From positions 168-64,167 of the forward strand of contig OZ246969.1 in NCBI GenBank assembly GCA_965232345.1: a DNA stretch of 64,000 nucleotides, given 5' to 3'. Each line of letters opens with the position of its first letter. The first letter of the stretch is position 1. Below are positions 4,736-63,604 of the stretch, piece after piece. The stretch comes from Arenicellales bacterium. Lineage in GTDB: Bacteria; Pseudomonadota; Gammaproteobacteria; Arenicellales; JAJDZL01. Position numbers and translations under genes: made by a program. A model generated the notes under the pieces. It did no database searches. It saw only the letters and a list, made by a program, of their open reading frames with translations, and was not told where the DNA came from.

Positions 4736-4766
4736 CGCTGAATCTCCCGATTCATTGTGGTTGTGA

Positions 4767-21987: not shown

Positions 21988-23715
21988 TTATGCAACGCAG
22001 ACCTTCGTGCCGGGCACAACGGGAAACGCCCAGTCATCAAAAGATTTGCTCTGAATCTCATCATAAAGCGGCGCACCCTGAAAAAGTGTGATCCGCGTCC
22101 AAAGATTGGACTTCGGATCAAATCTCGTTGCTCCGAATATGGCGAGCTTGCAGCGCAGGATATCAATTGGCAGGCAGTCCTTGTCCAACAGATTTTCCTG
22201 AATCTCAGCATATTCAAAATCCTCAAGTGACTGAATGCGCAGCACAATTGATCGATACTGAGGATAGTACTGCAGCAGATCCGTAACCGTCAGACAGCAT
22301 TGAAACCGCTCCAAACTGCACACTGCCTGATACAGCGCATTGGCATCCCGCGCGATTCCAACGCCCATTTCCAGCTCGCTGCCCGGCTCCTGATAGCGCC
22401 TGCCCAGCCTCGGCTCCTCCTTTTCCTGTGAAACATACCAGAAATAGTGCTGCGAATCCGGGTCCTGAAAATCCGCATCAAGCGCCCACTGATAGTTTTT
22501 CTCGATAAGGCTTTTCATTTCACCCAGCTCCATGGCCGGATCGAGCTGCACAAACTCATCCACACTCATGAATCGCTCGAAACTGTTGACATCGCCGGGA
22601 TATAGTTCCAGAAGCAGGCTGTTCAGGATTTCCTGGCATTCAAAACTGGTATGATCTGCGGCATAGTCGGTGAGAAAATGCCATGCATTTGAGATGTCGC
22701 GCGACTCGTGCGCCATCTTTTTGAGCTCAGGCAATTCCTCGCTCAGGACTCGGAGGCGTTCGGAAATTCTCGGGTCATCGGTCCGCCATTGTTTCAGGTG
22801 ATTTTCGAAACGCTCAACCAAATTTATGAATTTGGAAATTTCCGGACCGCTCACGTAGCTTTTCATTCTTACGGATTCGATTGCCGCTTCCCTGACTTTC
22901 ATCCATTGGCTGATCAGCTGCGGATGCCCCACCAGAAACGGCGCCATGCCAAGCCCGGTTGCATTGCCAACCCCGATTGACCGCCTGAGTTCTCTGGAAA
23001 GTCCAACCGCCCTGTTCCTGCCGCGCTGTCGGGCGATATGCTCAACCAGATCAATGCTGAACTGTCTGGCCATGTAGACAGTCAGCATCTCGGCCTGAAA
23101 CGGCATTCCGAACGGTGTGGACCGTTTGACTTCCTTGAAATCCATCAATCCGAATTTGCCATTGCCGTAAACGGCAGTGGTGCGGACAAGATAGCCGATT
23201 CTCATAATGTCATCGGCCTGCGGCTGCTGTCCGGAAGCAAGGCAGTCAATAACAGCATTGAACAGTCGAACGCTCTTATTCGCCCGGCTCATGACGATTT
23301 CAGACTCGCTCAGACGGCCGGCCTCCTGACGCGGAAGCTCCTCGCTCAGCCGCTCGATTTCCGCATCACTCGGGATGCCGTTGAACAGTGTGAAGCACAT
23401 GTCCCACTTTTCTGCAATCACGCGATCAGTGCGGTCGACATCGTCGATCTCAACCGCGAATGCAATGAAACTGACTGGGCCTGCGGGAGTTCGGATCACA
23501 TAAGTCAGGCATCCGTATCCCGACTCATCAAGCGTGTTGAGAAGAACCTCAAAGCCCCACCTCTCCCGATGCATGCGCCGCACCAGCGAACGGGTGAAAC
23601 TGAGTCGGGTTGGATGAAACGAGCCCAGCCGCTCAAGTTTCATCACCACTTCCGGCGGCCGTCCACGCGACTGTTCTAGCAGATCCTCAAAGTGTTTGAA
23701 GGGCAATCTAGTCAA
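21988..23715 (-). CDS. Uncharacterised 575-aa protein
   Basis: Long clean ORF whose start lies 11 nt after the dipeptidase stop. I recognise no catalytic or nucleotide-binding motif. Confidence 0.7.
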   Translation of the reverse strand: MTRLPFKHFEDLLEQSRGRPPEVVMKLERLGSFHPTRLSFTRSLVRRMHRERWGFEVLLNTLDESGYGCLTYVIRTPAGPVSFIAFAVEIDDVDRTDRVIAEKWDMCFTLFNGIPSDAEIERLSEELPRQEAGRLSESEIVMSRANKSVRLFNAVIDCLASGQQPQADDIMRIGYLVRTTAVYGNGKFGLMDFKEVKRSTPFGMPFQAEMLTVYMARQFSIDLVEHIARQRGRNRAVGLSRELRRSIGVGNATGLGMAPFLVGHPQLISQWMKVREAAIESVRMKSYVSGPEISKFINLVERFENHLKQWRTDDPRISERLRVLSEELPELKKMAHESRDISNAWHFLTDYAADHTSFECQEILNSLLLELYPGDVNSFERFMSVDEFVQLDPAMELGEMKSLIEKNYQWALDADFQDPDSQHYFWYVSQEKEEPRLGRRYQEPGSELEMGVGIARDANALYQAVCSLERFQCCLTVTDLLQYYPQYRSIVLRIQSLEDFEYAEIQENLLDKDCLPIDILRCKLAIFGATRFDPKSNLWTRITLFQGAPLYDEIQSKSFDDWAFPVVPGTKVCVA

Positions 23716-36491: not shown

Positions 36492-38135
36492 ATGCAAAAT
36501 TCTTTTGGTCAACCTGCCTTGCGGCCGCTGACTCTGTTTTTCTTTGGTGTTGCCATTTCCATTTCGCTGATTCTGGCACATGCACCGGCAGGCAGCACGC
36601 TCTTCCCCTTCCAATTCATTTCGACTGCGCAGGCTGAATACGAATTCGACCATTCTGCCGACACGATTGACTACCGAAACAACCGACTGCCCGAGCCCTA
36701 CAAGCCCGCAGGATATGGTTTGTTCAATCAGCCGGTGATTCAGCAGGAAGTAAAACTGGTTCCCAAAGTTGAAGAACCAGTGAATATCTGGCCGGCGATT
36801 CGAGCCGGCTTCAAACTTGGGGAGTTTGACAGCAAACTAGTGAAGCGGCACGAAAAGCGTTTCACACGCAATCCAAAGCACTTCGAGCGAATTCTGGAGC
36901 GGGCAGAACCCTACCTGCCGTACATTCTTGAGCAGACGAATCGGTACAGCATGCCAACGGAAGTTGTATTGCTGCCGTTGATTGAAAGCGGCTACAACCC
37001 CAGAATCTACTCCTCGCGCGGCGCGGCCGGCCTGTGGCAGTTCATGCCAGCGACGGGACGCCACTATGGACTGAAACAGAACTGGTGGTACGAGGGACGT
37101 CGCGACATCACTTTCTCAACGGACGCGGCGCTCAGGCACTTGCGAGATCTGAACGAACTCTTCGACGGCGACTGGCCGCTGTCATTTGCGGCATACAACG
37201 CCGGCCACAATGGCATCAACAGGGCCATCCGATCAAACAAGCGGAAGAACAAACCGACCGACCTGAAGTCACTGCGGCTCAATTCGGAAACACGGAACTT
37301 CTACCCGAAACTGATCGCAGTCAAGAACATCATTCAGAATCCGGATAAATTCGGCATCAAGCTGCCTGAAATCTCAACCCGATCGCCATTCCAGATCGTT
37401 GAGTTCGACTTTCAGGTTGATCTGATCGTGCTGTCCAGGGCCATCAATGTGGAATCACTGCAATTGGCTTTGCTGAATCCGGGACTGCGCCGGCATGCGA
37501 CCCCGCCCGACGGTCCGTTCAGAGTCCTGGTGCCCAGAGATAAGCATCAGGAAACACTTGACTGGAAACGCGATCTGCGTCCCGCTGGGGCCGTAGTTTC
37601 CGTGATTCATGTCGTTCAGGCGGGTGATACGCTGAGCGAGCTTGCTCAAAAATTCGGTGTTCCAGTCGCATCACTCATGACGATCAATGCGAAGAGCACG
37701 GATTTGATCCGAATCGGTGAGATCATCCGAGTACCGCACGGATCAAACCTTGGCGGTCTGAATGAATTCGGCGGTGCTGACATCGTCCATCGAGTGGTTT
37801 CAGGCGACAGCCTGAGCCGCATCGCACAGTCTTATGGCATTCGAGTCTCTGAATTGCGCGCAGCCAATGGAATTGGCAATCACTCAGATCTGATTCGGAT
37901 TGGACAGAAGCTGCGGATTCCAGACACGCATTACGCGAACTACGCCAACTCGCTTGCAACTGCAAGCGCCTCAGACTTGAGGTCCCGAACCGTTCACCGA
38001 GTCGTCTCCGGCGAATCGCTGTGGAGCATCGCCCGAAAATACAAGATCCGAGTGCTGGATCTGATCAACTGGAACAAGATCAGCCGTTCAGCGCACATTC
38101 ACCCAGGCCAGAAACTCGTCGTCTACATCTACTGA
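36492..38135 (+). CDS. mltD: Membrane-bound lytic murein transglycosylase D-like protein (SLT domain plus three LysM repeats)
   Basis: SLT catalytic block PLIESGYNP…GAAGLWQFMPATG, followed by three LysM repeats (HVVQAGDTLSELA, HRVVSGDSLSRIA, HRVVSGESLWSIA). Confidence 0.85.
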   Translation: MQNSFGQPALRPLTLFFFGVAISISLILAHAPAGSTLFPFQFISTAQAEYEFDHSADTIDYRNNRLPEPYKPAGYGLFNQPVIQQEVKLVPKVEEPVNIWPAIRAGFKLGEFDSKLVKRHEKRFTRNPKHFERILERAEPYLPYILEQTNRYSMPTEVVLLPLIESGYNPRIYSSRGAAGLWQFMPATGRHYGLKQNWWYEGRRDITFSTDAALRHLRDLNELFDGDWPLSFAAYNAGHNGINRAIRSNKRKNKPTDLKSLRLNSETRNFYPKLIAVKNIIQNPDKFGIKLPEISTRSPFQIVEFDFQVDLIVLSRAINVESLQLALLNPGLRRHATPPDGPFRVLVPRDKHQETLDWKRDLRPAGAVVSVIHVVQAGDTLSELAQKFGVPVASLMTINAKSTDLIRIGEIIRVPHGSNLGGLNEFGGADIVHRVVSGDSLSRIAQSYGIRVSELRAANGIGNHSDLIRIGQKLRIPDTHYANYANSLATASASDLRSRTVHRVVSGESLWSIARKYKIRVLDLINWNKISRSAHIHPGQKLVVYIY

Positions 38136-38137
38136 GT

Positions 38138-38911
38138 TCAGAGCGGCTGGCTACAGGCGTTCAGCAGCTGCCGAACTTTCCATAGATCGTCCCAGGACTT
38201 TGCCTTTTCTGAAGGCTTTCTCAGCAGATAGGCTGGATGGTAGGTCACCACCAGATCAATATCCGTGTCTTTGAACTTGTAGGACTGTCTTCGCAATCGT
38301 CCAAGCGCCAGCTCAGTGTCAAGCAGAAGGTGTGCGCTGATTCGACCGAGCGCGACAATCACTTTGGGCTGAATCAAGTCGATTTGCCTGCGCAGATACG
38401 CGGAGCAGGCTTTGGCCTCCTCAGGCGATGGATCGCGATTGTTAGGCGGTCTGCACTTCACAACGTTGCAGATATACACCTGACTCCGTTCAAAGCCCAG
38501 CGCCGAGATCATGGATGTCAGAAGCTGACCGGCCCTGCCCACGAATGGCAGCCCCTGTCGATCTTCCTCAGCACCGGGCCCCTCACCGATAAACAGAATA
38601 TCCGCGGTTTCGGAACCGGCACCGAATACAACCCGATTGCGCGAGCGGCTGAGTGAACACAGTTGACACGTCGATGCGACAGCCTCAACTGCCGCCATGT
38701 TCAGGTCCGCCAGAGGGTCGGCGACAGGCACCGGCTTTCTCTCTGCTGCTGGCGCGACATCAGCGACTTTATTGTCAAAAGTGATTGAAGACTGATCTGA
38801 ATCGTCTGCCGCTTCAGTATTCGAATCTTCCTCATTTGGGTCTTCGCCTTGCGATCGAAGCCGATAGACCTCGATGCCCATTGCTTTCAGGTAAGCGTCT
38901 TTTGACATCAA
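38138..38911 (-). CDS. Uracil-DNA glycosylase, family 4
   Basis: The C-terminal domain carries [23 protein letters not shown] and HPAYLLR motifs, with a low-complexity N-terminal extension. Confidence 0.85.
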
Positions 38912-40463: not shown

Positions 40464-40562
40464 AGCTAAACCTGACAAAATAAAGTATCAAACAAGAACC
40501 CGCCCGCCAATGATATGGTTGGCGGAATATCGTTAGAGGGGATTGAGAAAAAGAAAGCGCGC

Positions 40563-40634
40563 CTAAAGGCGCAGCAGAAGCAGGAGGCTGCTGGCGAATG
40601 AAGCTGTGGGAATTCTAGGAGCTGAGTTTGACAT
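40563..40634 (-). promoter_or_regulatory. Candidate leucine-rich leader peptide (MSNSAPRIPTASFASSLLLLLRL*) with a downstream hairpin, upstream of leuA
   Basis: Hand translation of the minus strand gives 23 codons, with five consecutive Leu codons (CTC CTG CTT CTG CTG) and a sixth Leu after Arg. The stop codon lies inside a GCGCC-TTTA-GGCGC hairpin followed by GCTTTCTTTTTCTC. A second hairpin CCGCCAA/TTGGCGG lies at 40504-40525. The Shine-Dalgarno is weak. Confidence 0.4.
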
Positions 40635-40716
40635 AGGCATTGATGTTATACCTTATCGGCATTCATATTGCAAATGTTTTGAGGGACTTCAAAATGTTCA
40701 CAAGCAAGTGGTATTC

Positions 40717-40766
40717 AATATTTAGGTTAGTGATACTGCTTCGCAGCGATCACTAACCTAAATATT
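40717..40766. repeat. Palindromic element copy B (reverse complement of copy A at 6947-6994)
   Basis: AATATTTAGGTTAGTGAT-ACTGCTTCGCAGCG-ATCACTAACCTAAATATT. The arms match copy A (copy A's right arm diverges at its outer end) and the loop is the reverse complement of copy A's loop. Confidence 0.85.
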
Positions 40767-40844
40767 GGTGTACAAGAAGGAGAGCAATCGAATACCGACT
40801 CGAATTTTAGATACAGTTATGAAAAGAAGAGGTAATCTGCACTG

Positions 40845-41288
40845 ATGAGCAAGGGTTATAAAAAGAGGCTTGAAAAGGAATTACGGGAGAACTGGCACAA
40901 TCCTGAATACAGAAACAGTTGGTTGGAAACATCTGCTGAATTGAACAAGGCCTACGGATACACACCGGAGCATCCGGTTGTAGTCGAACTTGAGCGAGAG
41001 CGGAGAATGAAGGAGTTGAATGAAGATCCAGTCAGCGAGTTATTTCAAATGAATTCCAACGCTTCAATAAATATTCAGCAAACTCATCATACTGTTCCTT
41101 CTGATCCTGATCAAACTTCACTAGCTGAGGAACCGCAGAAATTTCCCCGTGGAATATCTCGACAGCCGTTGCATAGGGCAACTCCTCAGGTCTATGGAGA
41201 ATGGCGTCTAGAACTGCGGCAACGGCTTCAAAAAAGACTTCGAGAACAATTTTCTGATCTTCACAGGTGGGATTCTGAATATGCATAG
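40845..41288 (+). CDS. Hypothetical ORF (147 aa); only the first ~60 aa look protein-like
   Basis: It lies in the AT-rich islet. Its 3' two-thirds run antisense to the 41032..41286 ORF, so at most one of the two is likely real over that span. Confidence 0.25.
   Translation: MSKGYKKRLEKELRENWHNPEYRNSWLETSAELNKAYGYTPEHPVVVELERERRMKELNEDPVSELFQMNSNASINIQQTHHTVPSDPDQTSLAEEPQKFPRGISRQPLHRATPQVYGEWRLELRQRLQKRLREQFSDLHRWDSEYA
41032..41286 (-). CDS. Hypothetical small helical protein (~84 aa)
   Basis: Globular-looking composition (…VLEVFFEAVAAVLDAILHRPEELPYATAVEIFHGEI…EYLLKRW). No motif recognised. The ATG at 41286 lies inside the track ORF 41032..41301. Confidence 0.35.
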   Translation of the reverse strand: MHIQNPTCEDQKIVLEVFFEAVAAVLDAILHRPEELPYATAVEIFHGEISAVPQLVKFDQDQKEQYDEFAEYLLKRWNSFEITR

Positions 41289-41686
41289 CCAAATTTTCCA
41301 AGCGAATTGATCCTTTTCATTATTTATAGACAGCAATCATGCACCAGAATCGAATACAGTCAAAAAACAAACGGCTCTTCAAACTACCACCCAATAACAT
41401 TCCTGCAGAAGTACATGAAAGAGCTGAGAAAATCGCTGGAATTCTATTGAATTCGCAACGAATAGAGAAAAATAGGAATTTCAATGAAGAAGTTTGAAGC
41501 CTCTTTCAGTGGATAAGTCAGATGCAGAACTCCAATCTATAGAAGTTATTGAAATGGAAAATTTCCATTTCCGTGACTCCGAAAGTTTTCGCTTCAAGCG
41601 CGAGTTCCTGTTCAGCAAGGCAAGTGTCACCAGCAAATGAAATGCGAGACCCCGAGCAAAATCCAAGGCCTCGCAATTCCATTCAT

Positions 41687-41947
41687 TTACCAGGTTGGGT
41701 AGGGCCCTTCCATGCCAGCTGAAATCTGATCAAGCTCACCTTCATCCAGTTCGACTGACGGTGGAAGCACCAGGTTGACGACTGAACCGCTATCTTCATG
41801 TACGATAATCTTCAGCTCTTCCGGAATTTCCAGATCCACCTCATCACCGATCGTGGCGACCGGATCCTCTTTCAATCGTGTTCGAAACTCTGAATCTTGT
41901 GCCGCTTTGGCAAAAATCTGGTTTCGAAACTCGTCTACTGTAGCCAT
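41687..41947 (-). CDS. NHLP-type (nitrile hydratase leader peptide family) RiPP precursor candidate, with predicted leader …LDQISAG and 8-aa core MEGPYPTW
   Basis: 86 aa. The sequence is FAKAAQDSEFRTRLKEDPVATIGDEVDLEIPEELKIIVHEDSGSVVNLVLPPSVELDEGELDQISAG. It follows the remembered TIGR03793 pattern (KAxxDxxFRxxLxxDPxAxI … LPE … V.E … LVLPP … LSDEELExVAGG). AGGAG sits 7 nt before the ATG. Confidence 0.7.
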   Translation of the reverse strand: MATVDEFRNQIFAKAAQDSEFRTRLKEDPVATIGDEVDLEIPEELKIIVHEDSGSVVNLVLPPSVELDEGELDQISAGMEGPYPTW

Positions 41948-42095
41948 GTCACACTCCTGTGTTTAATTCCAGATATAGATTGGAATCGGAAGCAAATCTT
42001 CATGATTCACACTTTCCGATCTGGTTGCGAATTATACCAAATCGGAAGTTTGCAGATAAAAAAATTGGCGCGCAGAGCAATGTTTGGCGTATGAC

Positions 42096-42899
42096 TTATT
42101 GTTTGCTTTCCGGCCGGCTGCCGCGCTTCGCACGTGCCAGTGCAGGCTGGTTTTTTCGTACCGACTTCTTGGAAAGCCAGATCGCCGGACCGCTCAGCAG
42201 ATAGATCAAGAATAGAGTGAACAGCACACGCGGCGGGTCAAACGAAATCAGCGCGATGCCAAACACCATAAGAATGCTGGTGACAAAAGGCACCCGGCCC
42301 CGAACACCGAAATTCTTGAAACTGAGGTACGGCACGGCGCTCACCATGCCCAGTGCAAGAATGAAAAGCACCGCGGTCGTCATTTCGGCCACCAGCGGAA
42401 TATTCCCCTCCCAGCCAGTCTCTATGACCCACATCCAGCCCACCAGAAAGGCGGCGGCCATTGGACATGGCAATCCCTGAAAATAGTTTGGATTGGGCGA
42501 TGATTGAGTGTTGAACCGGGCGAGACGCAGCGCTGTCGCAGAAACATAGAGAAACGCGCAAAGCCAGCCAACCTTCCCCAGACTCGACACTGACCATTCG
42601 AACACCACCAGCGCAGGAGCCAGGCCGAAACTGATCACGTCAGCCAAGCTGTCGTACTCCTTGCCGAAGTCGCTCGTCGTCTTGGTCAGCCGCGCCACTC
42701 TTCCATCAAGTCCGTCCAGCACCGTAGCAATCAATATTGCGATTGCCGCGTATTCGAACTTGTCAACAGAAGCCTGAATAATCGCGAAGAATCCGAAAAA
42801 CAGCGCGCCTGTTGTCAGCAGGTTGGGCAATACATAGATGCCGCGGCGCCGACGCGTGGATTTTCTTCCCGTTGTTGATTTCTTGGTTTCCAATTGCAT
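42096..42899 (-). CDS. pssA: CDP-diacylglycerol--serine O-phosphatidyltransferase
   Basis: 267 aa with the CDP-alcohol phosphatidyltransferase motif DGLDGRVARLTKTTSDFGKEYDSLADVISFG. Confidence 0.9.
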   Translation of the reverse strand: MQLETKKSTTGRKSTRRRRGIYVLPNLLTTGALFFGFFAIIQASVDKFEYAAIAILIATVLDGLDGRVARLTKTTSDFGKEYDSLADVISFGLAPALVVFEWSVSSLGKVGWLCAFLYVSATALRLARFNTQSSPNPNYFQGLPCPMAAAFLVGWMWVIETGWEGNIPLVAEMTTAVLFILALGMVSAVPYLSFKNFGVRGRVPFVTSILMVFGIALISFDPPRVLFTLFLIYLLSGPAIWLSKKSVRKNQPALARAKRGSRPESKQ

Positions 42900-42976
42900 C
42901 AGAAAAGATTGGCGCTGTCAGCATCTGTATTGCTTTCTGTGCATTTTAGCCGCGAAACGGAAGAAAGCAAAGAAGA

Positions 42977-42991
42977 CTGATCGTCAGGCAG
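42977..42991. repeat. 15-bp direct repeat (left putative target-site duplication) CTGATCGTCAGGCAG
   Basis: It is identical to 45388-45402 and immediately abuts the left terminal inverted repeat. Confidence 0.8.
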
Positions 42992-43274
42992 CAATTCTAA
43001 TTTTGGCATGAGCGTCTGATCACTGTTTCTGCCGATGTCATGCAAGTCATTGTATTCATGCGGTTTGAGCGGCTGAGCCGACGGGCCTGACCGAGCTCTT
43101 TTCCGCCTGCTCAAGCGCCCGAATGCGCTGATTTCGGCGCATTTCAGCCCTTCCGGGCGTCATTTTCCGCCATTTCCGCCGCAGTTTGCGTTTTTTTTTC
43201 GCTCCGCGGGTTGACAATATAGACGCAATGGTCTACCATTGGGGTCCATCGGCAATCCGGACGGACTTCAATCG

Positions 43275-43952
43275 ATGGGCAACGCATATTTCGGCTCCAA
43301 AGCGACCAGCGGCCTGTGCCAGCCGCTGATCGCGCTCATGCCTGAACACGATGTTTTCATCGAGTCGCACCTGGGCAGCGGCGTCATCATGCGGCGCAAG
43401 CCGCCCGCGCTGCGCAGCATCGGCATCGACCTTGACCGGCGCGCGCTGGCGCGCTTCAGCTGCGACTATCCGGTGGAGCTGGTGCACGGCTGCTGCCATG
43501 AGTTCCTGCTGAGCTTCCCGTTTCAGGGTCGGGAATTAGTCTACCTCGACCCGCCGTACGTCCGAAGCCTGCGCCGCTCGTCGAGGCGCTACCGCTTCGA
43601 CTACGAGGACGGCGATCACGTGCGGCTGCTCGGGATCGCGAGGTCGCTGCCGTGCCGGGTGATGATCTCCGGCTACAGCGGCGCGCTGTATGACGAGACG
43701 CTGTCGGACTGGAACACGCTGTCGCTGCAGGTGATGAACCAGGCCGGGGTGGTGACCGAGCGGCTGTGGTTCAACTTCGAGCCGGACCGGGCGCACTGGT
43801 GCCGCTATGCGGGCCGGGACTGCACCGACCGCCAGCGCATCCGGCGCAAGGCCGAGCGCTGGGGGCGGCGCTACGCCAAGATGCCGCACGCCGAGCGCCT
43901 GGCGGTGCTGGCGGAGATGATGGCGGCCGAGTCACAGCTGCCGGGGCGATGA
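43275..43952 (+). CDS. DNA adenine methyltransferase (D12 class, Dam-like)
   Basis: N-terminal YFGSK, FIESHLGSG (AdoMet motif I) and VYLDPPY (motif IV). The track ORF starts at a TTG at 43239, and the ATG at 43275 is preferred. Confidence 0.8.
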   Translation: MGNAYFGSKATSGLCQPLIALMPEHDVFIESHLGSGVIMRRKPPALRSIGIDLDRRALARFSCDYPVELVHGCCHEFLLSFPFQGRELVYLDPPYVRSLRRSSRRYRFDYEDGDHVRLLGIARSLPCRVMISGYSGALYDETLSDWNTLSLQVMNQAGVVTERLWFNFEPDRAHWCRYAGRDCTDRQRIRRKAERWGRRYAKMPHAERLAVLAEMMAAESQLPGR

Positions 43953-45286
43953 GGAAGCGGCTGCTGGTCGACCGCCTGATCGGCGCGCTGCGCGGTCTTT
44001 TCGAGACGGTCGGGGACCCGCGCGCCGGGCGCAACACGCAGCTGCGCTTCGAGGACATCCTGATGGCCGCGTTCTCGGTGTTCTTCATGCAGGCGCCGTC
44101 GTTCCTGGAGCACCAGCGGATGTTCGAAAGGTCCAGGGGCCGCAACGCGGCCGGCTCGCTGTTCGGCATCGGCCGGCTGCCCACCGACAACCACATCCGC
44201 TTCCAGCTGGACCGGATCGAGTCGGCCGAGATCTACGCGGGGTTCGACATCCCGCTCGGCATAATGACAGAATATCAAGCGCTTGAGCCCTATCAGGCGC
44301 TGGGCGGGCGCACCCTGATCGCGCTCGACGGCTCCGAGTTCCACAACTCGCGCAAGATCCACTGCCAGCACTGCCAGACGCGGCTCAGGAACAAGGGCAA
44401 GGACAGCGAGCACACCGAATACTATCACAGCGTGCTGGCGGCCGCACTGGTCGGGCCCGGCCACCCCCACGCGCTGCCGCTTCGCCCGGAGTTCATCTCG
44501 CCGCAGGACGGCGACAGGAAGCAGGACTGCGAGACCAAGGCCGGCTACCGCTGGCTGCGCGGCAACGCGGCGCGCTACGCGGCGCTCAGCCCGGTCTACC
44601 TGGGCGACGACCTGTACGCCAAGCAGCCGATGTGCCGCCTGGTGCTTGAGGCCGGCGCCGACTTCATCTTCCGCGTCAAGACCGACGACCACAAGACCCT
44701 GTTCGAGTATCTCGCCGGCATGGACTGGCCGCGCCGGACCGTCGAGCAGCGGACCCCGCGCGGCCGCCCGAACAAGGAGTTCCATTACCTGTGGAGCAGC
44801 TGCAAGCTGCCGCTGGCGGGCGGCAGCAATCCGCTGCAGGTCTACTATGCGGAGCTGCAGATCAAAAACGCCGGCGCCAGAAAACCGACCGCCATCTACC
44901 GCTTCGTCACCTCCATCCGGCCCGGCCCGCACAATGTCGCGGAGATCGTCGCCTGCGGCCGCACCCGCTGGAAGATCGAGAATGAGACCTTCAACATCCT
45001 CAAGAACCAGGGCTGCCACATCGAGCACAACTTCGGCCACGGCGAGAACGGCCTGTCCAACACGCTGCTGACCCTGAACCTGCTCGCCTTCACCTTCCAT
45101 GCGGTGTGCTTCCAGCTGTGCGCGCTGTGGCTGGCGGCCCAGCGGCAGTGCTGCCGCAGACGGCGCTTCTTCCTGACCCTGGACCTGTTCACGCAGTACG
45201 AGCACTTCGGCAGCTGGCGCGCGCTGCTCAGCGCGGTCGCCCACCCCGAGCAGCGGCCGCTCGCCAGATCGCGCGCCCCGCCCTAG
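43949..45286 (+). CDS. DDE-type transposase (IS4/ISNCY-like)
   Basis: ALDGSEF, YLGDDLYA and the C-terminal RTRWKIENETFNILKNQGCHIEHNFGHG block are typical of DDE transposases of the IS4-related superfamily. Its ATG overlaps the methyltransferase stop as ATGA (43949-43952). Confidence 0.8.
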   Translation: MRKRLLVDRLIGALRGLFETVGDPRAGRNTQLRFEDILMAAFSVFFMQAPSFLEHQRMFERSRGRNAAGSLFGIGRLPTDNHIRFQLDRIESAEIYAGFDIPLGIMTEYQALEPYQALGGRTLIALDGSEFHNSRKIHCQHCQTRLRNKGKDSEHTEYYHSVLAAALVGPGHPHALPLRPEFISPQDGDRKQDCETKAGYRWLRGNAARYAALSPVYLGDDLYAKQPMCRLVLEAGADFIFRVKTDDHKTLFEYLAGMDWPRRTVEQRTPRGRPNKEFHYLWSSCKLPLAGGSNPLQVYYAELQIKNAGARKPTAIYRFVTSIRPGPHNVAEIVACGRTRWKIENETFNILKNQGCHIEHNFGHGENGLSNTLLTLNLLAFTFHAVCFQLCALWLAAQRQCCRRRRFFLTLDLFTQYEHFGSWRALLSAVAHPEQRPLARSRAPP

Positions 45287-45387
45287 CTGGTCCAGGCTGC
45301 CCCGCGGCGGTTTCGCGCCGATCATCCGTCATTTTTTTTAACCATGCAGGTGTCAACGATGAAACCTGAGCCCTAAAATTAGAATTG

Positions 45388-45402
45388 CTGATCGTCAGGC
45401 AG
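45388..45402. repeat. 15-bp direct repeat (right putative target-site duplication) CTGATCGTCAGGCAG
   Basis: It is identical to 42977-42991 and contains the psd stop codon (TCA on the plus strand, 45395-45397). Confidence 0.8.
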
Positions 45403-46021
45403 TCGACCCGATTATGTCAGACCCGCCCTTGACTGTGTCTCCAATGCTGACAGAGACGCGATACTCAGGCGGCAGAAACAGCTCCACTCGGGAGCCGAAG
45501 CGGATGAAACCATACTTCTGTCCCTTCTCCACCGTGTCACCCGAGTCGACATAGCACAGAATCCGCCGCGCAATCAGCCCCGCAATCTGGATGCAAGTCA
45601 CTTCGCGAGAATCCTGGGTGCGAATGATGATCGCATTGCGCTCGTTCTCCTCTGCTGACTTGTCCACTGCGGCATTGAGAAACTTGCCGGCTCGATACTC
45701 CTTCCTGACTATCGTTCCGTCAACTGGAATGCGATTCGAATGAACCGAGAAGACATTGAGAAATATCGCAATCCGTGTGGCAGTCTGCCCGCTGATCGGA
45801 TCAATGGCTTCGCCGATAGCAACAACCTTGCCATCTGCCGGTGAGACTACAGAATCCGCATCAGCCGGAACAGCCCTCTGCGGTTCTCGAAAGAACTGAA
45901 GAACGAATAAGGCAATCAGCCAGAATGGAATTGACCAGTATCCACCCGCGGTCAGATTGACAACCAAGGCGGCGAGTAGAGCCGCGGCTGCGAAAGGATA
46001 CCCTTCGCGGGCAAGGCGCAT
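45395..46021 (-). CDS. psd: Phosphatidylserine decarboxylase family protein (short Asd/Psd type)
   Basis: 208 aa with N-terminal TM segments, SPADGKV, and the self-cleavage-type motif FGSRVELFLP. Confidence 0.85.
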   Translation of the reverse strand: MRLAREGYPFAAAALLAALVVNLTAGGYWSIPFWLIALFVLQFFREPQRAVPADADSVVSPADGKVVAIGEAIDPISGQTATRIAIFLNVFSVHSNRIPVDGTIVRKEYRAGKFLNAAVDKSAEENERNAIIIRTQDSREVTCIQIAGLIARRILCYVDSGDTVEKGQKYGFIRFGSRVELFLPPEYRVSVSIGDTVKGGSDIIGSTA

Positions 46022-46026
46022 TGGTC

Positions 46027-47588
<1,562 letters not shown>

Positions 47589-49337
47589 TTACGCCAGCTC
47601 CCGTTCCTGAGGAAGCGGTTCTTCAGAACCCGCCTTGGGACTCAGATGCATTTCGTTATGGCCGCTTCCGGCGGCAATCATCGGGTAGACATTCTCTTCC
47701 TGGTCAGTGATGAAGTCCATGAACACCAGATCATTCTTGCGCGCCATGGTCTCGCGCAGGGCGCCTTCGACATCCGCCGGATTCTCAATCCGCACCCCGT
47801 CATGACCGAAGCTTCGCGCCAGCGCGACGAAATCCGGCAACGCATCCATATAGGAGTGCGAATACCGGCGATCATAGAAGAATTCCTGCCACTGCCGAAC
47901 CATGCCCATGTACCTGTTGTTCAGGTTGATGATCTTGATTGGAAGATCGTACTGCCTGCAGGTTGACAGCTCCTGAATGCACATGATGATGCTTGCCTCG
48001 CCGGTAACGCAGACGACATCCGAATCCGGGTAGGCAAAGCACACGCCCATCGCCGCGGGCAGCCCGAATCCCATGGTGCCCAGACCGCCAGAGTTCACCC
48101 AGCGCCGGGGCTTGTCAAACCGATAGAACTGCGCCGCCCACATCTGATGCTGTCCGACATCGGAGGTCACAAACGCTTCACCTTTGGTGATCTCATACAG
48201 CTTCTCAAGCACGAACTGAGGCTTGATCTTGTCACTGCTGCGATCATAGGCCAGGCTGTCCTTCGATCTCCATGCGTTGATCTGGTTCCACCAAGCCTTC
48301 AGCGATTCGTAATCCGGCTGCATTTCCATTTTTTCAATGGTGGCAAGCAGATCCGCCAGAACATGTTTCGCATCGCCGACAATCGGAATCTCCACGGTCA
48401 CATTCTTGCCAATCGAGGCTGGATCAATGTCAATGTGGATGATTTTCGCATAAGGCGCGAACTTCGCAAGATCACCGGTGATCCGATCATCAAATCGGGC
48501 CCCGACCGCAAGCATCACGTCGCAGTCGTGCATGGCCATGTTCGCTTCATAAGTGCCGTGCATCCCGAGCATGCCGATGAACAATGGATCATTGGCCGGA
48601 TAGCAGCCGAGACCCATCAAGGTATTGGTGCAGGGATAGTCAAGCAGACGAACAAGTTTCCGAAGCTCCTGCTCACCGCCGGCGGTGGTGACACCCCCGC
48701 CGGTATAGATGATCGGCCGCTTCGCCGAAAGCAGCAGCTTCGCAGCCTTCTTGATCTGTCCCGCGTGCCCTCGAATCGTCGGATTGTAGGAGCGCATCGA
48801 GACCGACTCCGGATAGAAGTACTCAGTGGTCGCCGCGGTCACATCTTTCGGAATATCGATCACCACCGGACCCGGTTTGCCGCTGTTGGCGATGTAAAAC
48901 GCTTTTTTCACAGTGATTGCCAGTTCGCTGACATCTCTGACGAGAAAATTGTGTTTCACGCACGGTCTCGACACTCCAAGCGCATCCACTTCCTGAAACG
49001 CATCATCGCCAATCAGGTGCGAGGGAACCTGGCCTGAGATAACGACCATAGGAATCGCATCCATATAGGCCGTGGCAATGCCCGTAATGGTATTGGTTAC
49101 ACCGGGACCTGAAGTTACGAGTACAACGCCGGGCAGACCGGTTACCCGCGCATAACCGTCGGCAGCGTGTGAAGCACCCTGTTCATGTCGCACAAGAATG
49201 TGCTGGACATCATCTTGTTTATACAGGGCATCATAGATGTGCAGAGCCGCACCGCCCGGATAGCCGAAGACGTACTTGACACCTTCGTCCCGCAGGCAAT
49301 GGACCAGAATATCTGCGCCTGTCAACTTCATGGTCAT
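47589..49337 (-). CDS. ilvI: Acetolactate synthase large subunit (biosynthetic type)
   Basis: 582 aa. TPP enzyme blocks GYPGGA…HEQGA…, GLGTMGFGLPAAMG and NNRYMGMVRQWQ. Confidence 0.95.
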   Translation of the reverse strand: MTMKLTGADILVHCLRDEGVKYVFGYPGGAALHIYDALYKQDDVQHILVRHEQGASHAADGYARVTGLPGVVLVTSGPGVTNTITGIATAYMDAIPMVVISGQVPSHLIGDDAFQEVDALGVSRPCVKHNFLVRDVSELAITVKKAFYIANSGKPGPVVIDIPKDVTAATTEYFYPESVSMRSYNPTIRGHAGQIKKAAKLLLSAKRPIIYTGGGVTTAGGEQELRKLVRLLDYPCTNTLMGLGCYPANDPLFIGMLGMHGTYEANMAMHDCDVMLAVGARFDDRITGDLAKFAPYAKIIHIDIDPASIGKNVTVEIPIVGDAKHVLADLLATIEKMEMQPDYESLKAWWNQINAWRSKDSLAYDRSSDKIKPQFVLEKLYEITKGEAFVTSDVGQHQMWAAQFYRFDKPRRWVNSGGLGTMGFGLPAAMGVCFAYPDSDVVCVTGEASIIMCIQELSTCRQYDLPIKIINLNNRYMGMVRQWQEFFYDRRYSHSYMDALPDFVALARSFGHDGVRIENPADVEGALRETMARKNDLVFMDFITDQEENVYPMIAAGSGHNEMHLSPKAGSEEPLPQERELA

Positions 49338-49510
49338 ATTCCTCTGATTCAGCCGAGATTGCTCCTCTCAGCCTAGTGATGTGATTGCCAAATTAAATCA
49401 ATTAAACAAATAATTATAGTTAGCGTTGCAATGCAGCAAGAATAAATCTCGAAAATTTTGGACGGTTCTGCATGAAGTTTCCAGGTCAATGGAGATGCAA
49501 TCAAATCGGT

Positions 49511-50917
49511 TCAGAGTTTGCGCCAGGTGCTGGTGCCATCGGCGCGGTCCTCGACCTCGACACCCAGGTCAGCCAGTTTCCGCCTCAGCTCATCCGCTTC
49601 CTTCCACAGCTTTTCGCGGCGCGCCGCCTCTCTTCGCAACACCAGATCTCCGATTCCATCATCATCCGCTGACTGCTCAACACCTAGGAATCTGGAAGCA
49701 TCCAGACACGCGGCACCTAAAGCATCGGTCAGATTCCGCAGGGTTCGATACAGCCGACTGATGACAGCCTCCGATTCGGCTTCCAATGCGCGATTCAGCT
49801 CCCGTACGCATTCGAAAACCACTGCCAATGCGTCGGGCGTATTGAAGTCATCGTCCATTGCCGCTCGAAACCGAGATATGTATCGCTCGTCCAACTGGCC
49901 AGACGGCTGAATGCCTGACTGCTCGGCCTTGTGAATCGCGGTATAGATTCGCTTCAGCGCGACACTCGCATTTTCCAGTGAGCTGTCGCTGTAGTTGAGC
50001 GGGCTTCGGTAGTGACTCAGCAGGAATGTGAAGCGCAGAATCTCTCCCATCCTTGCCGGGTCTGAATCCTGTGCCAGAATCTCGCGGATTGTCAGAAAAT
50101 TCTTGAGGGACTTGGACATCTTTTCTGAATCGATCTCCAAATACCCGTTGTGCATCCAGACATTGACAAAACATTCGTCGGTCGCGGCCTCAGACTGGGC
50201 GATTTCGTTCTCGTGATGCGGGAAAAGCAGATCTCTGCCGCCGCCGTGGATATCGAAGTGATTGCCCAGCAAACTGGTCGACATTGCGGAGCATTCGATG
50301 TGCCAGCCAGGCCGCCCCCTGCCCCAAGGCGAGTCCCAGCTGGGCTCACCGGGCTTCGACCCTTTCCACAGGACGAAATCCATCGGGTCATCCTTGGCAT
50401 CACCGGGCTCGATTCTCGCACCGACAACCAGATCATCCAGACACGTGCCCGACAGCTTGCCGTAGTCCTTGAATTTTCGAGTGCGGTAATAGACATCTCC
50501 ATTCGCCGCTGGATAAGCGTATCCGCGGTCAATCAGCTCGGCGATCATTTCTATGATCTGCGGAATGTATTCAGTTGCCCGGGGTTCGTGATCCGGTTTG
50601 GTCACAAACAGCGCATCCAGATCTTCGTTCATATGCCTGATGCAGCGATTCGTCAGTGCTTCGGTCGACTCACCCAGCTCGCTGGCGCGGTTGATGATCT
50701 TGTCATCGATGTCCGTGATATTGCGCACGTAGGTGACTTCATAGCCCCGGTATCGCAAGTAGCGCACAATCGCATCGAATCCAACCATCACGCGGGCATG
50801 GCCCAGATGACAATAGTCGTAGACCGTCATTCCGCACACGTAGATGCGAACGCGATTGCCGTCGATCGGCTTGAATTCCTCTTTTTGTCCAGTCAGACTG
50901 TTATGAATGTTCAACAT
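49511..50917 (-). CDS. cysS: Cysteine--tRNA ligase
   Basis: YVCGMTVYDYCHLGHAR (HIGH region) and KMSKSLKN (KMSKS). Confidence 0.95.
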   Translation of the reverse strand: MLNIHNSLTGQKEEFKPIDGNRVRIYVCGMTVYDYCHLGHARVMVGFDAIVRYLRYRGYEVTYVRNITDIDDKIINRASELGESTEALTNRCIRHMNEDLDALFVTKPDHEPRATEYIPQIIEMIAELIDRGYAYPAANGDVYYRTRKFKDYGKLSGTCLDDLVVGARIEPGDAKDDPMDFVLWKGSKPGEPSWDSPWGRGRPGWHIECSAMSTSLLGNHFDIHGGGRDLLFPHHENEIAQSEAATDECFVNVWMHNGYLEIDSEKMSKSLKNFLTIREILAQDSDPARMGEILRFTFLLSHYRSPLNYSDSSLENASVALKRIYTAIHKAEQSGIQPSGQLDERYISRFRAAMDDDFNTPDALAVVFECVRELNRALEAESEAVISRLYRTLRNLTDALGAACLDASRFLGVEQSADDDGIGDLVLRREAARREKLWKEADELRRKLADLGVEVEDRADGTSTWRKL

Positions 50918-51472
50918 GAAACTGCTGAAGAAGGAAGGCTGTGAAATGAGTTTCTACCACCCATGAAACCCGCACATTATAAAAATCGCGGTACTTACTT
51001 TTCGGGTCGAAATGCATTCCAATTCCGCTGCACTCGCTGGCAATTGCAGTCGCGAACGACGAATCTCAAGTCTTGTATTCATCTATCGACAGAAAATCAT
51101 CTTGACTGAGCGGCCTGACCGCAATCCCGTCTTTTCGTTTCCAATTTCAGCCTAGAGTGCTCAATTGGAAATCTCGGCCTGCCGATCGACTCACTCCATG
51201 ACCGCGGCTGTTTCCCACCTTCAGCCGCGACTTCTCCCAACACCATTGTGCTGGTGAACTGAACCCCGCCGGTCCGGCATTCGCCGGTGAGATGGAAAGT
51301 AGACCACTTTCGAGCAAATATCGCAGTTTTCGAGGTGTTCACCGCGGTAAACACTCAATGATTGCCAGTCGGAAAAAATATGTCAGGCTCCAGATCACAT
51401 TTATGCTTGACTTTTTTCGAACACTCAAGTACAAGGGCAGTCCGCAAAACATATTGATGCAAGGAGATCGCG

Positions 51473-52525
51473 ATGAGAGAGAATAACAAGAGTAAGATTG
51501 ACAGGCGCCATACCGGGAATATTCACATCAATTTTTTCAGGACCCGCTTCCAGGCCCGCGCTCAGATCGGCGCGCTGCTGAAGCTGGCGCTCTCGCCGGA
51601 GGAGCTCAGGCAGCTTGACCTTCGCAGCCTTCGCCTGGAGCCGGGGCGCTGGACCAAGCTGAAAGATGACCGGTTCAGCAGCCGGGAGACGGACCTTCAG
51701 GTGTCGGCCCGGCTGCGAGGCGGCGCCAAGGTGACAGTGAGCATCGTCATCGAGCACAAGAGCGACGACGACCCCGATCTGATGGCGCAGCTGCTGCGCT
51801 ACCAGGCGGGCTGCTTCGAGCGCGGCGCGCCGGCCGTGGTTCCGCTGGCCCTGTATCACGGCAGAACCAAGGGCTTCCCCAAGTGGAAGACCTTCCAGCA
51901 GTACCAGAGGAACCGGCTGCAGGTGCCGGCCGGGCTGATGGACTGCCTGTCAGAATCGATGCTCGACTTCAAGCCTCTGGTGATCGACCTGACGGATGAG
52001 GCCACCGGTCGGAGGCTGGCCATGCTGCCGCTGGCCGCGGAGCTTTCGCTCTGGATGATGAAGAATGTGTGGCGGATTGATTGGGCGATGTTCGTGGAGC
52101 TGGTGAATAAATCATTCCGCCTGCCGGCGAGGCAGCGGATGCCCTTGGTCCGCGAGTGCGCCATTTACCTGTGCGATGTGAGACGCGAGTATAAAATAGG
52201 TGACCTGATGAGATATATCAATGAACAGCTGCCGGGGGACAGTGCGATGCAGGAGTTAGCGAAGGAATGGGAGTGGGTGAAAAGGCCCGACCTGATCAGG
52301 GAAGGCGAGCAGAAGGGAATCAAGAAAGGCCGGCAAATTGGCCAAAAGGAAGGCGAGCAGAAGGGGATCAAGAAAGGCCGACAAATTGGCCAAAAGGAAG
52401 GACAGCAGCAAAAGGCTCTGGATATTGCTGAAAAACTGTTGCGCAAAGATTTGTCAGTGGAAGAGATCAGCAACATCACAGGATTGGATGCCGGGCAGAT
52501 TGACGGGCTGCGAAATCATAATTGA
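51473..52525 (+). CDS. Rpn-family recombination-promoting nuclease/putative transposase (PD-(D/E)xK, YhgA-like)
   Basis: ETDLQV…VSIVIEHKSDDDPDLMAQLLRYQ is the core. The C-terminal repeat is EGEQKGIKKGRQIGQK x2, followed by ALDIAEKLLRKDLSVEEISNITGL. Confidence 0.8.
   Translation: MRENNKSKIDRRHTGNIHINFFRTRFQARAQIGALLKLALSPEELRQLDLRSLRLEPGRWTKLKDDRFSSRETDLQVSARLRGGAKVTVSIVIEHKSDDDPDLMAQLLRYQAGCFERGAPAVVPLALYHGRTKGFPKWKTFQQYQRNRLQVPAGLMDCLSESMLDFKPLVIDLTDEATGRRLAMLPLAAELSLWMMKNVWRIDWAMFVELVNKSFRLPARQRMPLVRECAIYLCDVRREYKIGDLMRYINEQLPGDSAMQELAKEWEWVKRPDLIREGEQKGIKKGRQIGQKEGEQKGIKKGRQIGQKEGQQQKALDIAEKLLRKDLSVEEISNITGLDAGQIDGLRNHN
52301..52396 (+). repeat. 48-bp in-frame tandem repeat (2 full units plus a partial third) inside the Rpn gene
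   Basis: GAAGGCGAGCAGAAGGG(A/G)ATCAAGAAAGGCCG(G/A)CAAATTGGCCAAAAG occurs twice, encoding EGEQKGIKKGRQIGQK. Confidence 0.9.
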
Positions 52526-61759: not shown

Positions 61760-63604
61760 TCAAGCGGGTGAAACAATTGCCGGCAAAACATCTTCGCCAT
61801 TCAGCATTCGTTGTTGACTTTCTAAGTCCCTCTTAAATTCAGCACGTCTCGAGTAAAGATACGTCCAGCTTGAAAACTCTTTGAATCTCAATTGATTCCG
61901 TGCTTCATCTAAATTCTCCTGAGCCTTCTCAAAATCGGAAAGCGCCCAGTAAACAAGACTCATACACTGGCTGAAATTAGCACCACTGCTTCTTTTTTGA
62001 TCGACAATTTCTGCCAGATACTTGAAATCTTCTATAGGAACAATTTGTGTTTTACCCCATTGTGCCATCGCAAGATTGAAAACATTTGGAATACTCCATT
62101 CGTAATCTATGTTCGAACTTAACTTCTCAGACCAGTCTATTGCCTCGTCAAATTTTCGTTGACCGATAAGACTCAACATTAGATTATCTTGAGCTTTGAA
62201 AACTATTTTTTGCTCGAACTGTGTTTCATCGCATGCAAGTTGAATACATCGTTGGAGCAACTGCTCGGCCGTCTTTAGATTACGCCGGCGAAAGCTGAAT
62301 AAATCGGCGAGATTTAGTAATTCGATCGGGTCGAGTACCAGCACGCTCTCCCAAGTCACGATAGATTCAAGTTGCTTTAAAACTACAGAATCATCATGAG
62401 ACAAGAGAAAGCGAACTGATTCCTTCAGTTCACGGAAATTAAGATTTTTATGTTTTGTTGCTGCGATTATCGAATTCACTGACTCCTTTTTCTCACCCAG
62501 CCTAGACGCGAATCGTGAGTGCAGTATTAGGTAACTTGGTATGTCTTTGAATCTGTCCCAATTTTCTTTCAGTATTTGGTAGGCTTGTTCTTCGTCATGC
62601 CATCCCAAATGACGAACAACTAAATTCAATATTTCGAAATCGTTTATATGATGGTCTAGAATTCGTTTTAAGTTCTGATCTACTTTGTCGGTCTCATCTT
62701 GATTGCGTTCTTGGTTACCATATGGATTGGATACTACATCCTTCAAATAAAAAATCGCCCCATTTCTATCTTGCGCGTTAAATTTTTGGATCTCCTTTAC
62801 AAGATCGGAGTATTCTGATGCGAGTCTGCTTTTGGGTCGAGAAATTGTGAAAATTTCTTGATTCAACAAAGAAAGATCTTGGTAGTGATGGATAGTGGCG
62901 GCGAGTTTTTTATATTTGAGGTTCTTCTGGAACTCCTGAAGACGGCTCCACAATATGCTGTGCTCATCATCTATATCAGGAACATTGGAGGTGACGAAAT
63001 GCATCACTAATTCTTTACTTCCCTCAATATTCTGCTCTCTGACCCGATCAACTATTGGAATCAGCCCAGATAAATTCTGTCTATTTGGAAAAAATAGTAA
63101 AACAACGGCATCGGGAATTTGGCGCGTACAGATGCTGCCAACATCAGTGTGTCCGGTACGAGAGTCAATGAGTACATAATCTGGATTAAGCGATTTCTTC
63201 CACTGGGCCTTGAGGTTTTCGAAAAGAAAGTAGCCATCATTAAAATCGTAAAGATCTCTCCAATTTATCGAATTGAGTCGCTGATGGTAATTTTTCTTTC
63301 GTTCACCTGCTGGCATTAACCATAAAGTGCCATTGGCTTCACTGTTGAAAGAACCTTTATGGACATAGTCATCCAACTCCGGTGCGATTTCAGTATTCAG
63401 GTATTTAGTGACATAATCGACTAGACCTTTGCGCGTTTTGCCTGCCTCCCAGTCCAAACTGAATGTATCGAGTCCAGGAGCTTCAAGGTCGAAGTCAACC
63501 AATAGCACACGTTTTTTTTGCTCAACCAGGTGGGCGGCGCAATTCATCATTGCGATCGAGCGACCGACACCACCCTTAAATGAATAAAAAGTTACTACAT
63601 ACAT
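61760..63604 (-). CDS. KGGVGR-variant ParA/MinD-like P-loop ATPase fused to a roughly 330-aa helical-repeat (TPR-like) C-terminal region
   Basis: 614 aa. The N-terminus VVTFYSFKGGVGRSIAMMNCAAHLV…VLLVDFDLEAPGL…VLIDSRTGHTD is a deviant Walker A with Arg in place of the second Lys. The C-terminal half is rich in helical repeats. Confidence 0.8.
   Translation of the reverse strand: MYVVTFYSFKGGVGRSIAMMNCAAHLVEQKKRVLLVDFDLEAPGLDTFSLDWEAGKTRKGLVDYVTKYLNTEIAPELDDYVHKGSFNSEANGTLWLMPAGERKKNYHQRLNSINWRDLYDFNDGYFLFENLKAQWKKSLNPDYVLIDSRTGHTDVGSICTRQIPDAVVLLFFPNRQNLSGLIPIVDRVREQNIEGSKELVMHFVTSNVPDIDDEHSILWSRLQEFQKNLKYKKLAATIHHYQDLSLLNQEIFTISRPKSRLASEYSDLVKEIQKFNAQDRNGAIFYLKDVVSNPYGNQERNQDETDKVDQNLKRILDHHINDFEILNLVVRHLGWHDEEQAYQILKENWDRFKDIPSYLILHSRFASRLGEKKESVNSIIAATKHKNLNFRELKESVRFLLSHDDSVVLKQLESIVTWESVLVLDPIELLNLADLFSFRRRNLKTAEQLLQRCIQLACDETQFEQKIVFKAQDNLMLSLIGQRKFDEAIDWSEKLSSNIDYEWSIPNVFNLAMAQWGKTQIVPIEDFKYLAEIVDQKRSSGANFSQCMSLVYWALSDFEKAQENLDEARNQLRFKEFSSWTYLYSRRAEFKRDLESQQRMLNGEDVLPAIVSPA

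Follow-up and report, generated by a model that had tools for sequence, protein, structure and literature searches.

How is a gene to be understood that encodes the precursor of a modified peptide and stands among genes that have no evident part in modifying it? The question is raised by a locus in a 64,000-nucleotide stretch of an Arenicellales bacterium genome (contig OZ246969.1; hereafter the window), where an open reading frame (ORF) at positions 41687-41947 of the reverse strand encodes an 86-residue protein. An initial annotation of the window described this protein as an orphan precursor of a ribosomally made, post-translationally modified peptide (RiPP), equipped with a leader peptide of the nitrile-hydratase-like type (NHLP). 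The analyses presented here indicate that the gene is most likely a functional satellite member of an NHLP-leader (proteusin-type) precursor family characterized by short, hypervariable cores and a terminal tryptophan.

Judged by its sequence, the product of 41687-41947 is a genuine NHLP-leader RiPP precursor. Its translation, which agrees with the protein sequence quoted in the initial annotation, matches the NCBIfam model TIGR03793 (leader_NHLP) with a score of 57.0 bits (E = 1.3e-15), above the curated cutoff of 50.9 bits, and the match spans residues 5-78 of the protein and positions 3-77 of the 77 positions in the model. Because the match runs to residue 78, the leader can be taken to end with Ala77-Gly78 (residues 1-78, nucleotides 41947-41714), such that the eight residues MEGPYPTW constitute the core (residues 79-86, nucleotides 41713-41690), directly ahead of the stop codon (41689-41687). 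Both the NHLP leader and the eight-residue core following a double-glycine-type AG site had been proposed beforehand, as had a strong Shine-Dalgarno sequence, and all three are supported; specifically, AGGAG is located at 41954-41958 of the same strand, 6 nt 5' of the ATG. Of the two leader families suggested for comparison in the initial annotation, NHLP is thus recovered above its cutoff, while no match to the Nif11 leader model was found in NCBIfam or Pfam at E values up to 10.

The known relatives of the precursor are numerous and distant. When 5.8 billion proteins were searched by a word-indexed method, the precursor itself was returned and nothing else above 53% identity, and an exhaustive phmmer search identified 958 homologues at E values up to 0.001, the best of which is 52% identical. 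Among the best 150 of these 958 are 90 short homologues, 26 of which end in tryptophan; further short homologues in this set have a tryptophan within their last three residues. One subgroup of homologues carries the tail LCCC plus one residue, often tryptophan, and larger multi-domain proteins with NHLP repeats are also represented. When the family was aligned (25 sequences), the precursor was found to possess all nine invariant columns, and it has these nine positions, including L67, L72 and W86, in common with the W-terminal homologues. The invariant residues L67 and L72 form an L(X)4L motif, and Ala77-Gly78 aligns with the Gly-Gly column of the family, where G78 is present in at least 90% of the sequences. 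The core contains no cysteine.

A similar pattern was seen in a second sample, composed of NHLP ORFs from 43 loci identified with leader patterns and from a further set of loci. Tryptophan occupies the C-terminus of 122 of these 235 ORFs; for the 43 loci, one genome per species was scanned and the patterns were taken from the leader only. Across these alignments and counts, the C-terminal tryptophan is a signature of the family. No other feature of the core is as informative, though this one had been overlooked in the initial annotation.

In addition to these distant relatives, a profile search, which returned 981 proteins, identified a paralogue, P0214. This protein of 90 residues is 53% identical to the precursor, ends in the tail DWDGWD, and has been placed on a contig of exactly 3,544,205 bp, a length shared by the contig of the precursor and of the window's cysS, pssA and psd genes; tblastn analysis places it outside the 64 kb. 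Because P0214 lies elsewhere in the same genome, that genome holds at least two diverged precursors. The search for paralogous precursors recommended in the initial annotation was therefore productive, and the designation "orphan" is appropriate for the locus, where no partner is found within 64 kb, but not for the genome. A second tblastn match of P0214, at 45416-45496, was rejected as a chance match, as it corresponds to the C-terminus of psd in the reading frame of psd itself.

The isolation of the precursor within the window is well supported. No YcaO, radical S-adenosylmethionine (SAM), LanM, C39-peptidase ABC transporter, tryptophan halogenase or prenyltransferase was found among 46 larger ORFs of the window that were compared with Pfam or NCBIfam, nor did these scans reveal a polyprenyl-synthase-like enzyme or a kinase adjoining the precursor. 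The scans passed over leuA, a uracil-DNA-glycosylase-like gene (38138-38911), a 547-residue ORF (36492-38135), and ORFs under about 120 residues; the three named genes were interpreted by inspection or through tblastn comparison with relatives, while cysS, ilvI/H/C, psd and pssA were identified by Pfam marks on L001, a metagenomic copy of positions 40686-51716 of the window that is 99.955% identical to it. A tblastn search of the window with the conserved maturases of the relatives likewise gave no match, and the earlier statement that the window contains no recognizable maturase or exporter therefore stands. What the window does contain is housekeeping and catabolic genes, including those for an ABC solute importer, two amidases, a TauD-family dioxygenase, a GMC oxidoreductase and an Mrp antiporter, as well as rnhA, a dnaQ-like gene, leuA, pssA, psd, ilvIHC, cysS, purF, cvpA, folC, accD, trpF, two transposase genes, and a few ORFs of no known function.

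Insight into which enzymes might act upon such a precursor comes from the loci of its relatives. The 43 loci, all from uncultured, metagenome-assembled genomes, belong to the Dehalococcoidia, Nitrospirales, Binatia, Gammaproteobacteria, Alphaproteobacteria, Vicinamibacterales, Spirochaetia, Acidimicrobiia, Bryobacterales and Gemmatimonadaceae. When the neighbouring ORFs were clustered, the dominant family was found to be a protein of ~370 residues, present in 28 loci, followed by ABC transporters (22 loci), HlyD-like adaptors (14 loci), a JmjC protein (8 loci) and a SAM methyltransferase of 235 residues (6 loci). In the Dehalococcoidia and Nitrospirales, the typical gene order is a methyltransferase, 7-14 precursors, the ~370-residue protein, an ABC transporter of 979-1030 residues, a C39-peptidase ABC transporter of 733 residues, and HlyD; one cluster from the Binatia brings together no fewer than 14 precursors and three ~370-residue paralogues, and it also encodes a JmjC protein as well as an RND pump. 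Among the 25 locus-encoded precursors nearest to that of the window (43-51% identity), 19 have a gene for the ~370-residue protein in the same locus.

Precursors that lie apart from these enzymes are also encountered. Contig OZ242017.1 carries one locus with the enzyme (L007) and, about 190 kb away, another with eight precursors and no enzyme (L005); OZ242026.1 similarly carries one locus with the enzyme (L006) and one without (L012), and on OY282378.1 an enzyme-bearing locus (L015) is accompanied by a single precursor (L013). In four additional cases (L014, L029, L042 and L043), a single precursor is found with no enzyme within 10 kb. Because genomes that bear the enzyme also hold loci consisting of precursors only, an isolated precursor is normal for this family.

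Investigation of the ~370-residue family, of which L007 13403-14500 (reverse strand), L002 18577-19719 (forward) and L044 5052-6170 (forward) are examples, gave no match in Pfam or NCBIfam, and comparison of the family profile with the sequences of the PDB yielded noise only. The family has 710 database homologues, and those named by their sources are called "hypothetical protein"; E72, Y140, R220, R226, K348, K359 and Y361 (numbered as in the member P0267) are among its invariant residues. An AlphaFold2 model built with 45 homologues (pLDDT 88.4, pTM 0.87) presents five beta-hairpins alternating with pairs of helices, and each of its best 40 Foldseek matches in the PDB is an aromatic prenyltransferase of the ABBA, or PT-barrel, type. 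These matches include DMATS1 with L-tryptophan, the dimethylallyl-tryptophan synthase FgaPT2, EpzP, AnaPT, CloQ, TleC, CymD, AmbP1, NphB/Orf2 and LimF; the first 34 of them have a Foldseek probability of 1.00, and the TM-scores are mostly 0.4-0.55. Together these data predict that the ~370-residue protein is an aromatic prenyltransferase of the ABBA fold, with putative indole prenyltransferase activity. A search of the open-access literature, which did not extend to the key paper on srp clusters, found no ABBA-type prenyltransferase acting on NHLP precursors.

The same prenyltransferase-like family is present in three loci whose precursors end in LCCCW, referred to here as srp-type. In L044, genes encoding a YcaO protein and a tryptophan halogenase, both recognized by Pfam, lie beside the LCCCW precursors; homologues of both are found in L045 and L047, and in all three loci the prenyltransferase-like gene directly adjoins that of YcaO, between YcaO and the precursor. 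In the neighbour clustering, the YcaO and halogenase families were confined to these three loci, and the prenyltransferase-like protein is therefore the only tailoring gene common to the W-terminal group. This statement relies upon clustering rather than upon a flavin-halogenase pattern (WxWxIP), which was blind even in L044, with its Pfam-recognized halogenase, and whose result was discarded. Each srp-type locus also encodes a protein of ~440 residues (L044 1366-2700, forward; L045 1573-2874, forward; L047 9506-10807, reverse), in which an N-terminal segment resembling NHLP and nitrile hydratase alpha is joined to a region that weakly matches the C-terminal domain of squalene-hopene cyclase; it may represent a leader-like domain fused to an enzyme.

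In the window itself, the sequences flanking the precursor gene contain putative expression signals. An extended -10 element, TGGTATAAT (TGnTATAAT), is located at 42031-42039 of the reverse strand, 84 nt upstream of the ATG, and TGNTATAAT occurs only once in the 64 kb when both strands are searched. The corresponding -35 position reads TTATCT (3/6), and because this element is weak, TGGTATAAT was overlooked by a generic promoter scan. Lying across this -10 element and the point at which transcription would be expected to begin (near 42024) is an operator-like inverted repeat, TTCCGATCTGGT / ACCAAATCGGAA, at 42014-42047, with 12-nt arms, a 10-nt spacer and 92% complementarity; as RNA it would fold at -18 kcal/mol (z = -4.2). 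The palindrome TTCCGATnTGGT-N10-ACCAnATCGGAA occurs once in the window and had 0 matches in 100 shuffles. Repressor operators usually take this form, with a palindrome placed over the -10 box and the start of transcription, and we infer that 42014-42047 is a putative operator of this kind; no regulator gene was found near the precursor.

The suggestion of an operator had been made earlier on the basis of three copies of the heptamer ATCGGAA, and their positions are confirmed (41985-41991 and 42041-42047 on the forward strand, 42014-42020 on the reverse). The heptamer alone is not rare, with 24 occurrences in the window versus 14 +/- 3.7 expected, but two of the copies form the outer ends of the longer, unique palindrome. 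The third copy, at 41985-41991, lies in the predicted 5' untranslated region and could pair, over 7 bp, with the downstream arm of the palindrome. Beyond the gene, a stem-loop begins 12 nt after the stop codon (41643-41675, reverse strand), for which a terminator scan reported 13 pairs, 7 of them G-C, and a weak T-tract. It folds at -26.4 kcal/mol (z = -4.8), none of 200 shuffled sequences was as stable, and it looks like a terminator or a stabilizer of the mRNA. With an extended -10 promoter within a palindrome, the locus would constitute a compact regulatory unit.

The precursor gene is carried by an AT-rich spacer that extends from the start of leuA to the stop codon of pssA (40479-42095). 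As was noted in the initial annotation, this islet differs in composition from its surroundings (GC content of 37-46% across 40.4-42.0 kb versus 53% for the window) and appears to have been inserted between the two genes; consistent with insertion, the pssA-leuA spacer of 1.6 kb in the window measures about 0.3 kb in L048 and L049. These two loci, with the gene order psd-pssA-leuA, are the closest metagenomic relatives, and their pssA and leuA products are 53-57% and 69-73% identical, respectively, to those of the window. In L055 the spacer measures 2.2 kb and holds an unrelated gene encoding 636 residues (4796-6706, forward). The comparison suggests that insertions have recurred at the pssA-leuA junction; neither terminal inverted repeats nor target-site duplications were found at the borders of the islet.

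Other elements of the islet and its vicinity include a hypothetical ORF of 84 residues (41032-41286), in the same orientation as the precursor and annotated as a gene in each of the two public copies. Neither Pfam nor PHROG gives a match for it, and no homologue occurs in any related locus; a single-sequence AlphaFold2 model presents it as a three-helix bundle (pLDDT 75), and no link to the precursor was seen. An antisense ORF, ORF147, likewise lacks Pfam and PHROG matches and homologues in the related loci. Closer to leuA, about 240 nt upstream of its start, lies an inverted repeat of 19 bp, perfect in its pairing and with arms 14 nt apart (40716-40767). Its fold energy is -33 to -34 kcal/mol (z about -7.4) for both strands, and it is not followed by a T-tract. 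On the other side of pssA, between this gene and psd, is a GC-rich (63-72%) insertion at 43200-45330, which carries an ORF resembling DNA methyltransferases (43239-43952; phrog_56, with a weak Dam match) and a DDE_Tnp_1 transposase gene (43766-45286); psd and pssA are adjacent in L049.

As to how such a gene might function, we lean, with modest confidence, toward a satellite precursor that is processed in trans, with Trp86 tailored (prenylation being the best guess), the product cut after Ala77-Gly78, and the core exported as an octapeptide. According to this model, the precursor would be transcribed from its own extended -10 promoter, which the palindromic operator overlaps, and the 3' stem-loop would end or stabilize the transcript. 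The 78-residue leader would fold as an NHLP domain, and its L67-L72 L(X)4L segment would offer the core to enzymes encoded elsewhere. The likeliest of these, an ABBA-fold prenyltransferase-like protein of the kind that the closest relatives have beside them and presumably present in the genome, would act on the Trp86 indole; further tailoring may come from a halogenase, methyltransferase or oxygenase. Finally, a C39-peptidase ABC exporter would cut after Ala77-Gly78 and export the modified MEGPYPTW.

Several observations weigh against this model. No tailoring enzyme, C39 protease or exporter was found within the 64 kb, and no homologue of the ~370-residue protein on the 3,544,205-bp contig was found among the best 120 of its 710 matches. 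The leader is only 41-53% identical to those of relatives with known context, the prenyltransferase assignment is that of a predicted fold at 11-14% sequence identity, and the precursor sequence is known from a single strain, represented by the genome and the 99.955%-identical metagenomic contig.

The first of these observations would also be expected if the gene were a stranded relic, that is, if horizontal transfer had brought it into the islet without its cognate enzymes and the peptide, if made, were unmodified, unexported and functionless. The foreign base composition of the islet, the other insertions taken up at this spot, and the lack of any close orthologue, the gene itself being the only sequence above 53% identity in the proteins searched, all fit such an origin. 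Nevertheless, we consider a relic unlikely: the ORF is intact and has kept every residue that is invariant in the family, W86 included, and it is framed by a strong Shine-Dalgarno sequence, the only TGnTATAAT of the window, a unique palindrome over the promoter and a stable 3' hairpin. The diverged second paralogue in the same genome further argues for a maintained system, and where related genomes possess the enzymes, satellite precursors are an ordinary occurrence.

Alternatively, the precursor may be tailored by another class of enzyme: an SrpI-like flavin brominase with Trp86 as its target, a radical SAM or P450 enzyme that would link Tyr83 to Trp86 in a cyclophane or biaryl, or a prenyltransferase that is all-alpha, like PalQ, and has a connection with signalling. 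Such possibilities are not without precedent, as SrpI acts via L(X)4L, a motif that the precursor has, on several NHLP leaders (PMC10858898, PMC12537861), and PalX, with an NHLP leader and an eight-residue core ending in tryptophan, is of the same build (PMC10853753); the Y-P-T-W core is, moreover, rich in aromatic and proline residues. The neighbourhoods of the relatives point elsewhere, however. Halogenase and YcaO families are restricted to the three LCCCW loci, whereas the clusters of the precursor's nearest relatives contain ABC transporters and the prenyltransferase-like protein. Sampled Pfam scans of the neighbouring genes, in which not all singletons were included, turned up neither a radical SAM nor a P450 domain, and a scan of the related loci for the CxxxCxxC motif was negative. 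The initial annotation had pointed to radical SAM enzymes that form cyclophanes or splice; none was found in the scanned neighbour genes of the related loci, the tailoring gene these loci share is that of a predicted ABBA prenyltransferase, and this candidate therefore gains no support from the relatives. Overall, a different enzyme class seems improbable to us. Still less credible, and in our estimation very improbable, is the notion that the protein is no RiPP precursor and is instead a stand-alone nitrile-hydratase-alpha-like domain with another role, regulation for example. Multi-domain proteins with NHLP repeats do occur among the homologues, and the protein shows weak matches to nitrile hydratase alpha models, but these fall far below the respective cutoffs (PF02979, 17.6 bits against 27.2; TIGR01323, 21 bits against 250) whereas the leader model scores above its own, and a Gly-Gly-type site lies at the family position with the signature tryptophan eight residues later.

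Returning to the trans-processed satellite, its significance may be considered at two levels. The precursor itself is a diverged addition to a known class, defined by a short core that follows an NHLP leader and ends in tryptophan. More tentatively, and as a possibility rather than a probability, it may be an outlier of an extensive combinatorial RiPP system not yet described, in which arrays of W-terminal NHLP precursors with hypervariable cores would have their tryptophan lipidated by an unannotated ABBA-fold family of at least 710 members and be cut and exported by C39-ABC transporters; this system would extend over at least eight bacterial lineages, include the srp clusters and possess scattered satellites. 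The terminal tryptophan provides a simple sequence rule by which a large group of NHLP precursors can be recognized, and an unannotated family of predicted indole prenyltransferases accompanies the W-terminal precursors, also inside published srp clusters. If leader-guided tryptophan prenylation does take place, it would offer a new tool for peptide lipidation and would explain why hundreds of unrelated cores have the same last residue. Insofar as the modelled fold is a guide, the W-terminal arrays and the prenyltransferase-like family, which lie outside the window, are a more interesting lead than the window gene.

Elsewhere in the window, several features merit brief mention. A tRNA gene at 15802-15899 (forward strand; Rfam, 53.6 bits) is assigned by ARAGORN to alanine with the anticodon CGC and has a variable arm of ~24 nt and discriminator A. 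This class II build is normally that of leucine, serine and tyrosine tRNAs, and the identity of the tRNA may therefore not match its anticodon. At 20330-23715 (reverse strand), a gene encoding a 512-residue protein with a C-terminal IrrE/M78 peptidase domain adjoins one for a 575-residue protein that has no match in Pfam, NCBIfam or PHROG; together with a nearby PIN-domain gene (19511-19945), the pair may form a defence or toxin-antitoxin module. A protein of 614 residues is encoded at 61760-63604 (reverse strand), the first ~190 residues of which match the AAA ATPase of the KGGVGR-motif variant (NF047398, 175 bits). Lastly, two adjacent and slightly overlapping MgtE-related ORFs are located at 3416-5621 (reverse strand), one encoding a full MgtE of 461 residues and the other a protein of 284 residues with MgtE_N and CBS domains only.

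Comparison with characterized systems helps to place the precursor. The Paenibacillus alvei precursor PalX, likewise of the NHLP type, carries the eight-residue core DNVRRFFW, the conserved C-terminal tryptophan of which is prenylated by PalQ, an enzyme of the all-alpha, ComQ-like isoprenoid-synthase fold whose reaction is enhanced by the leader (PMC10853753). Both systems thus combine an NHLP leader with a core of eight residues and a terminal tryptophan. They differ in their surroundings, since PalQ and a histidine kinase adjoin PalX, whereas relatives of the precursor have the ABBA-type protein and ABC exporters; the window, for its part, has neither a PalQ-type enzyme or kinase by the gene nor an ABBA-type protein or ABC exporters.

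SrpE, a proteusin of sponge microbiomes, has the core LCCCW, and its C-terminal tryptophan is brominated by the flavin halogenase SrpI (PMC10286304, PMC10858898) in a reaction that depends upon the leader and, through L(X)4L, proceeds on several NHLP leaders (PMC10858898, PMC12537861). Both precursors have an NHLP leader that bears L(X)4L, and in both a very short core closes with tryptophan, which in SrpE is tailored; furthermore, the srp-type loci L044, L045 and L047 and the nearest relatives of the precursor all have a prenyltransferase-like neighbour. In contrast, the LCCCW core of SrpE is processed by YcaO, while MEGPYPTW is free of cysteine, the window is without YcaO or halogenase, and the nearest relatives of the precursor have hypervariable cores with neither enzyme nearby.

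A leader that directs prenylation is exemplified by MppE, a lanthipeptide precursor with a Nif11 leader, in which MppC geranylates one specific tryptophan in a leader-dependent manner (PMC12715784). As is proposed for the precursor of the window, a prenyltransferase is directed to a single tryptophan by a leader that is long, structured and equipped with L(X)4L, although in MppE the leader is of the Nif11 type, a lanthionine ring is present, and the modified tryptophan is internal.

With respect to genetic organization, a parallel is provided by the prochlorosins (ProcA/ProcM), in which many scattered precursors with long conserved leaders and hypervariable cores are served by one promiscuous enzyme in trans. 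Prochlorosins have Nif11 leaders and undergo LanM chemistry on cysteine, serine and threonine, and in this they differ from the precursor described here, given that MEGPYPTW lacks cysteine and that no LanM occurs in the 46 scanned ORFs of the window. What the two share is the arrangement itself, for the relatives of the precursor, like the prochlorosins, include precursor loci scattered as satellites.

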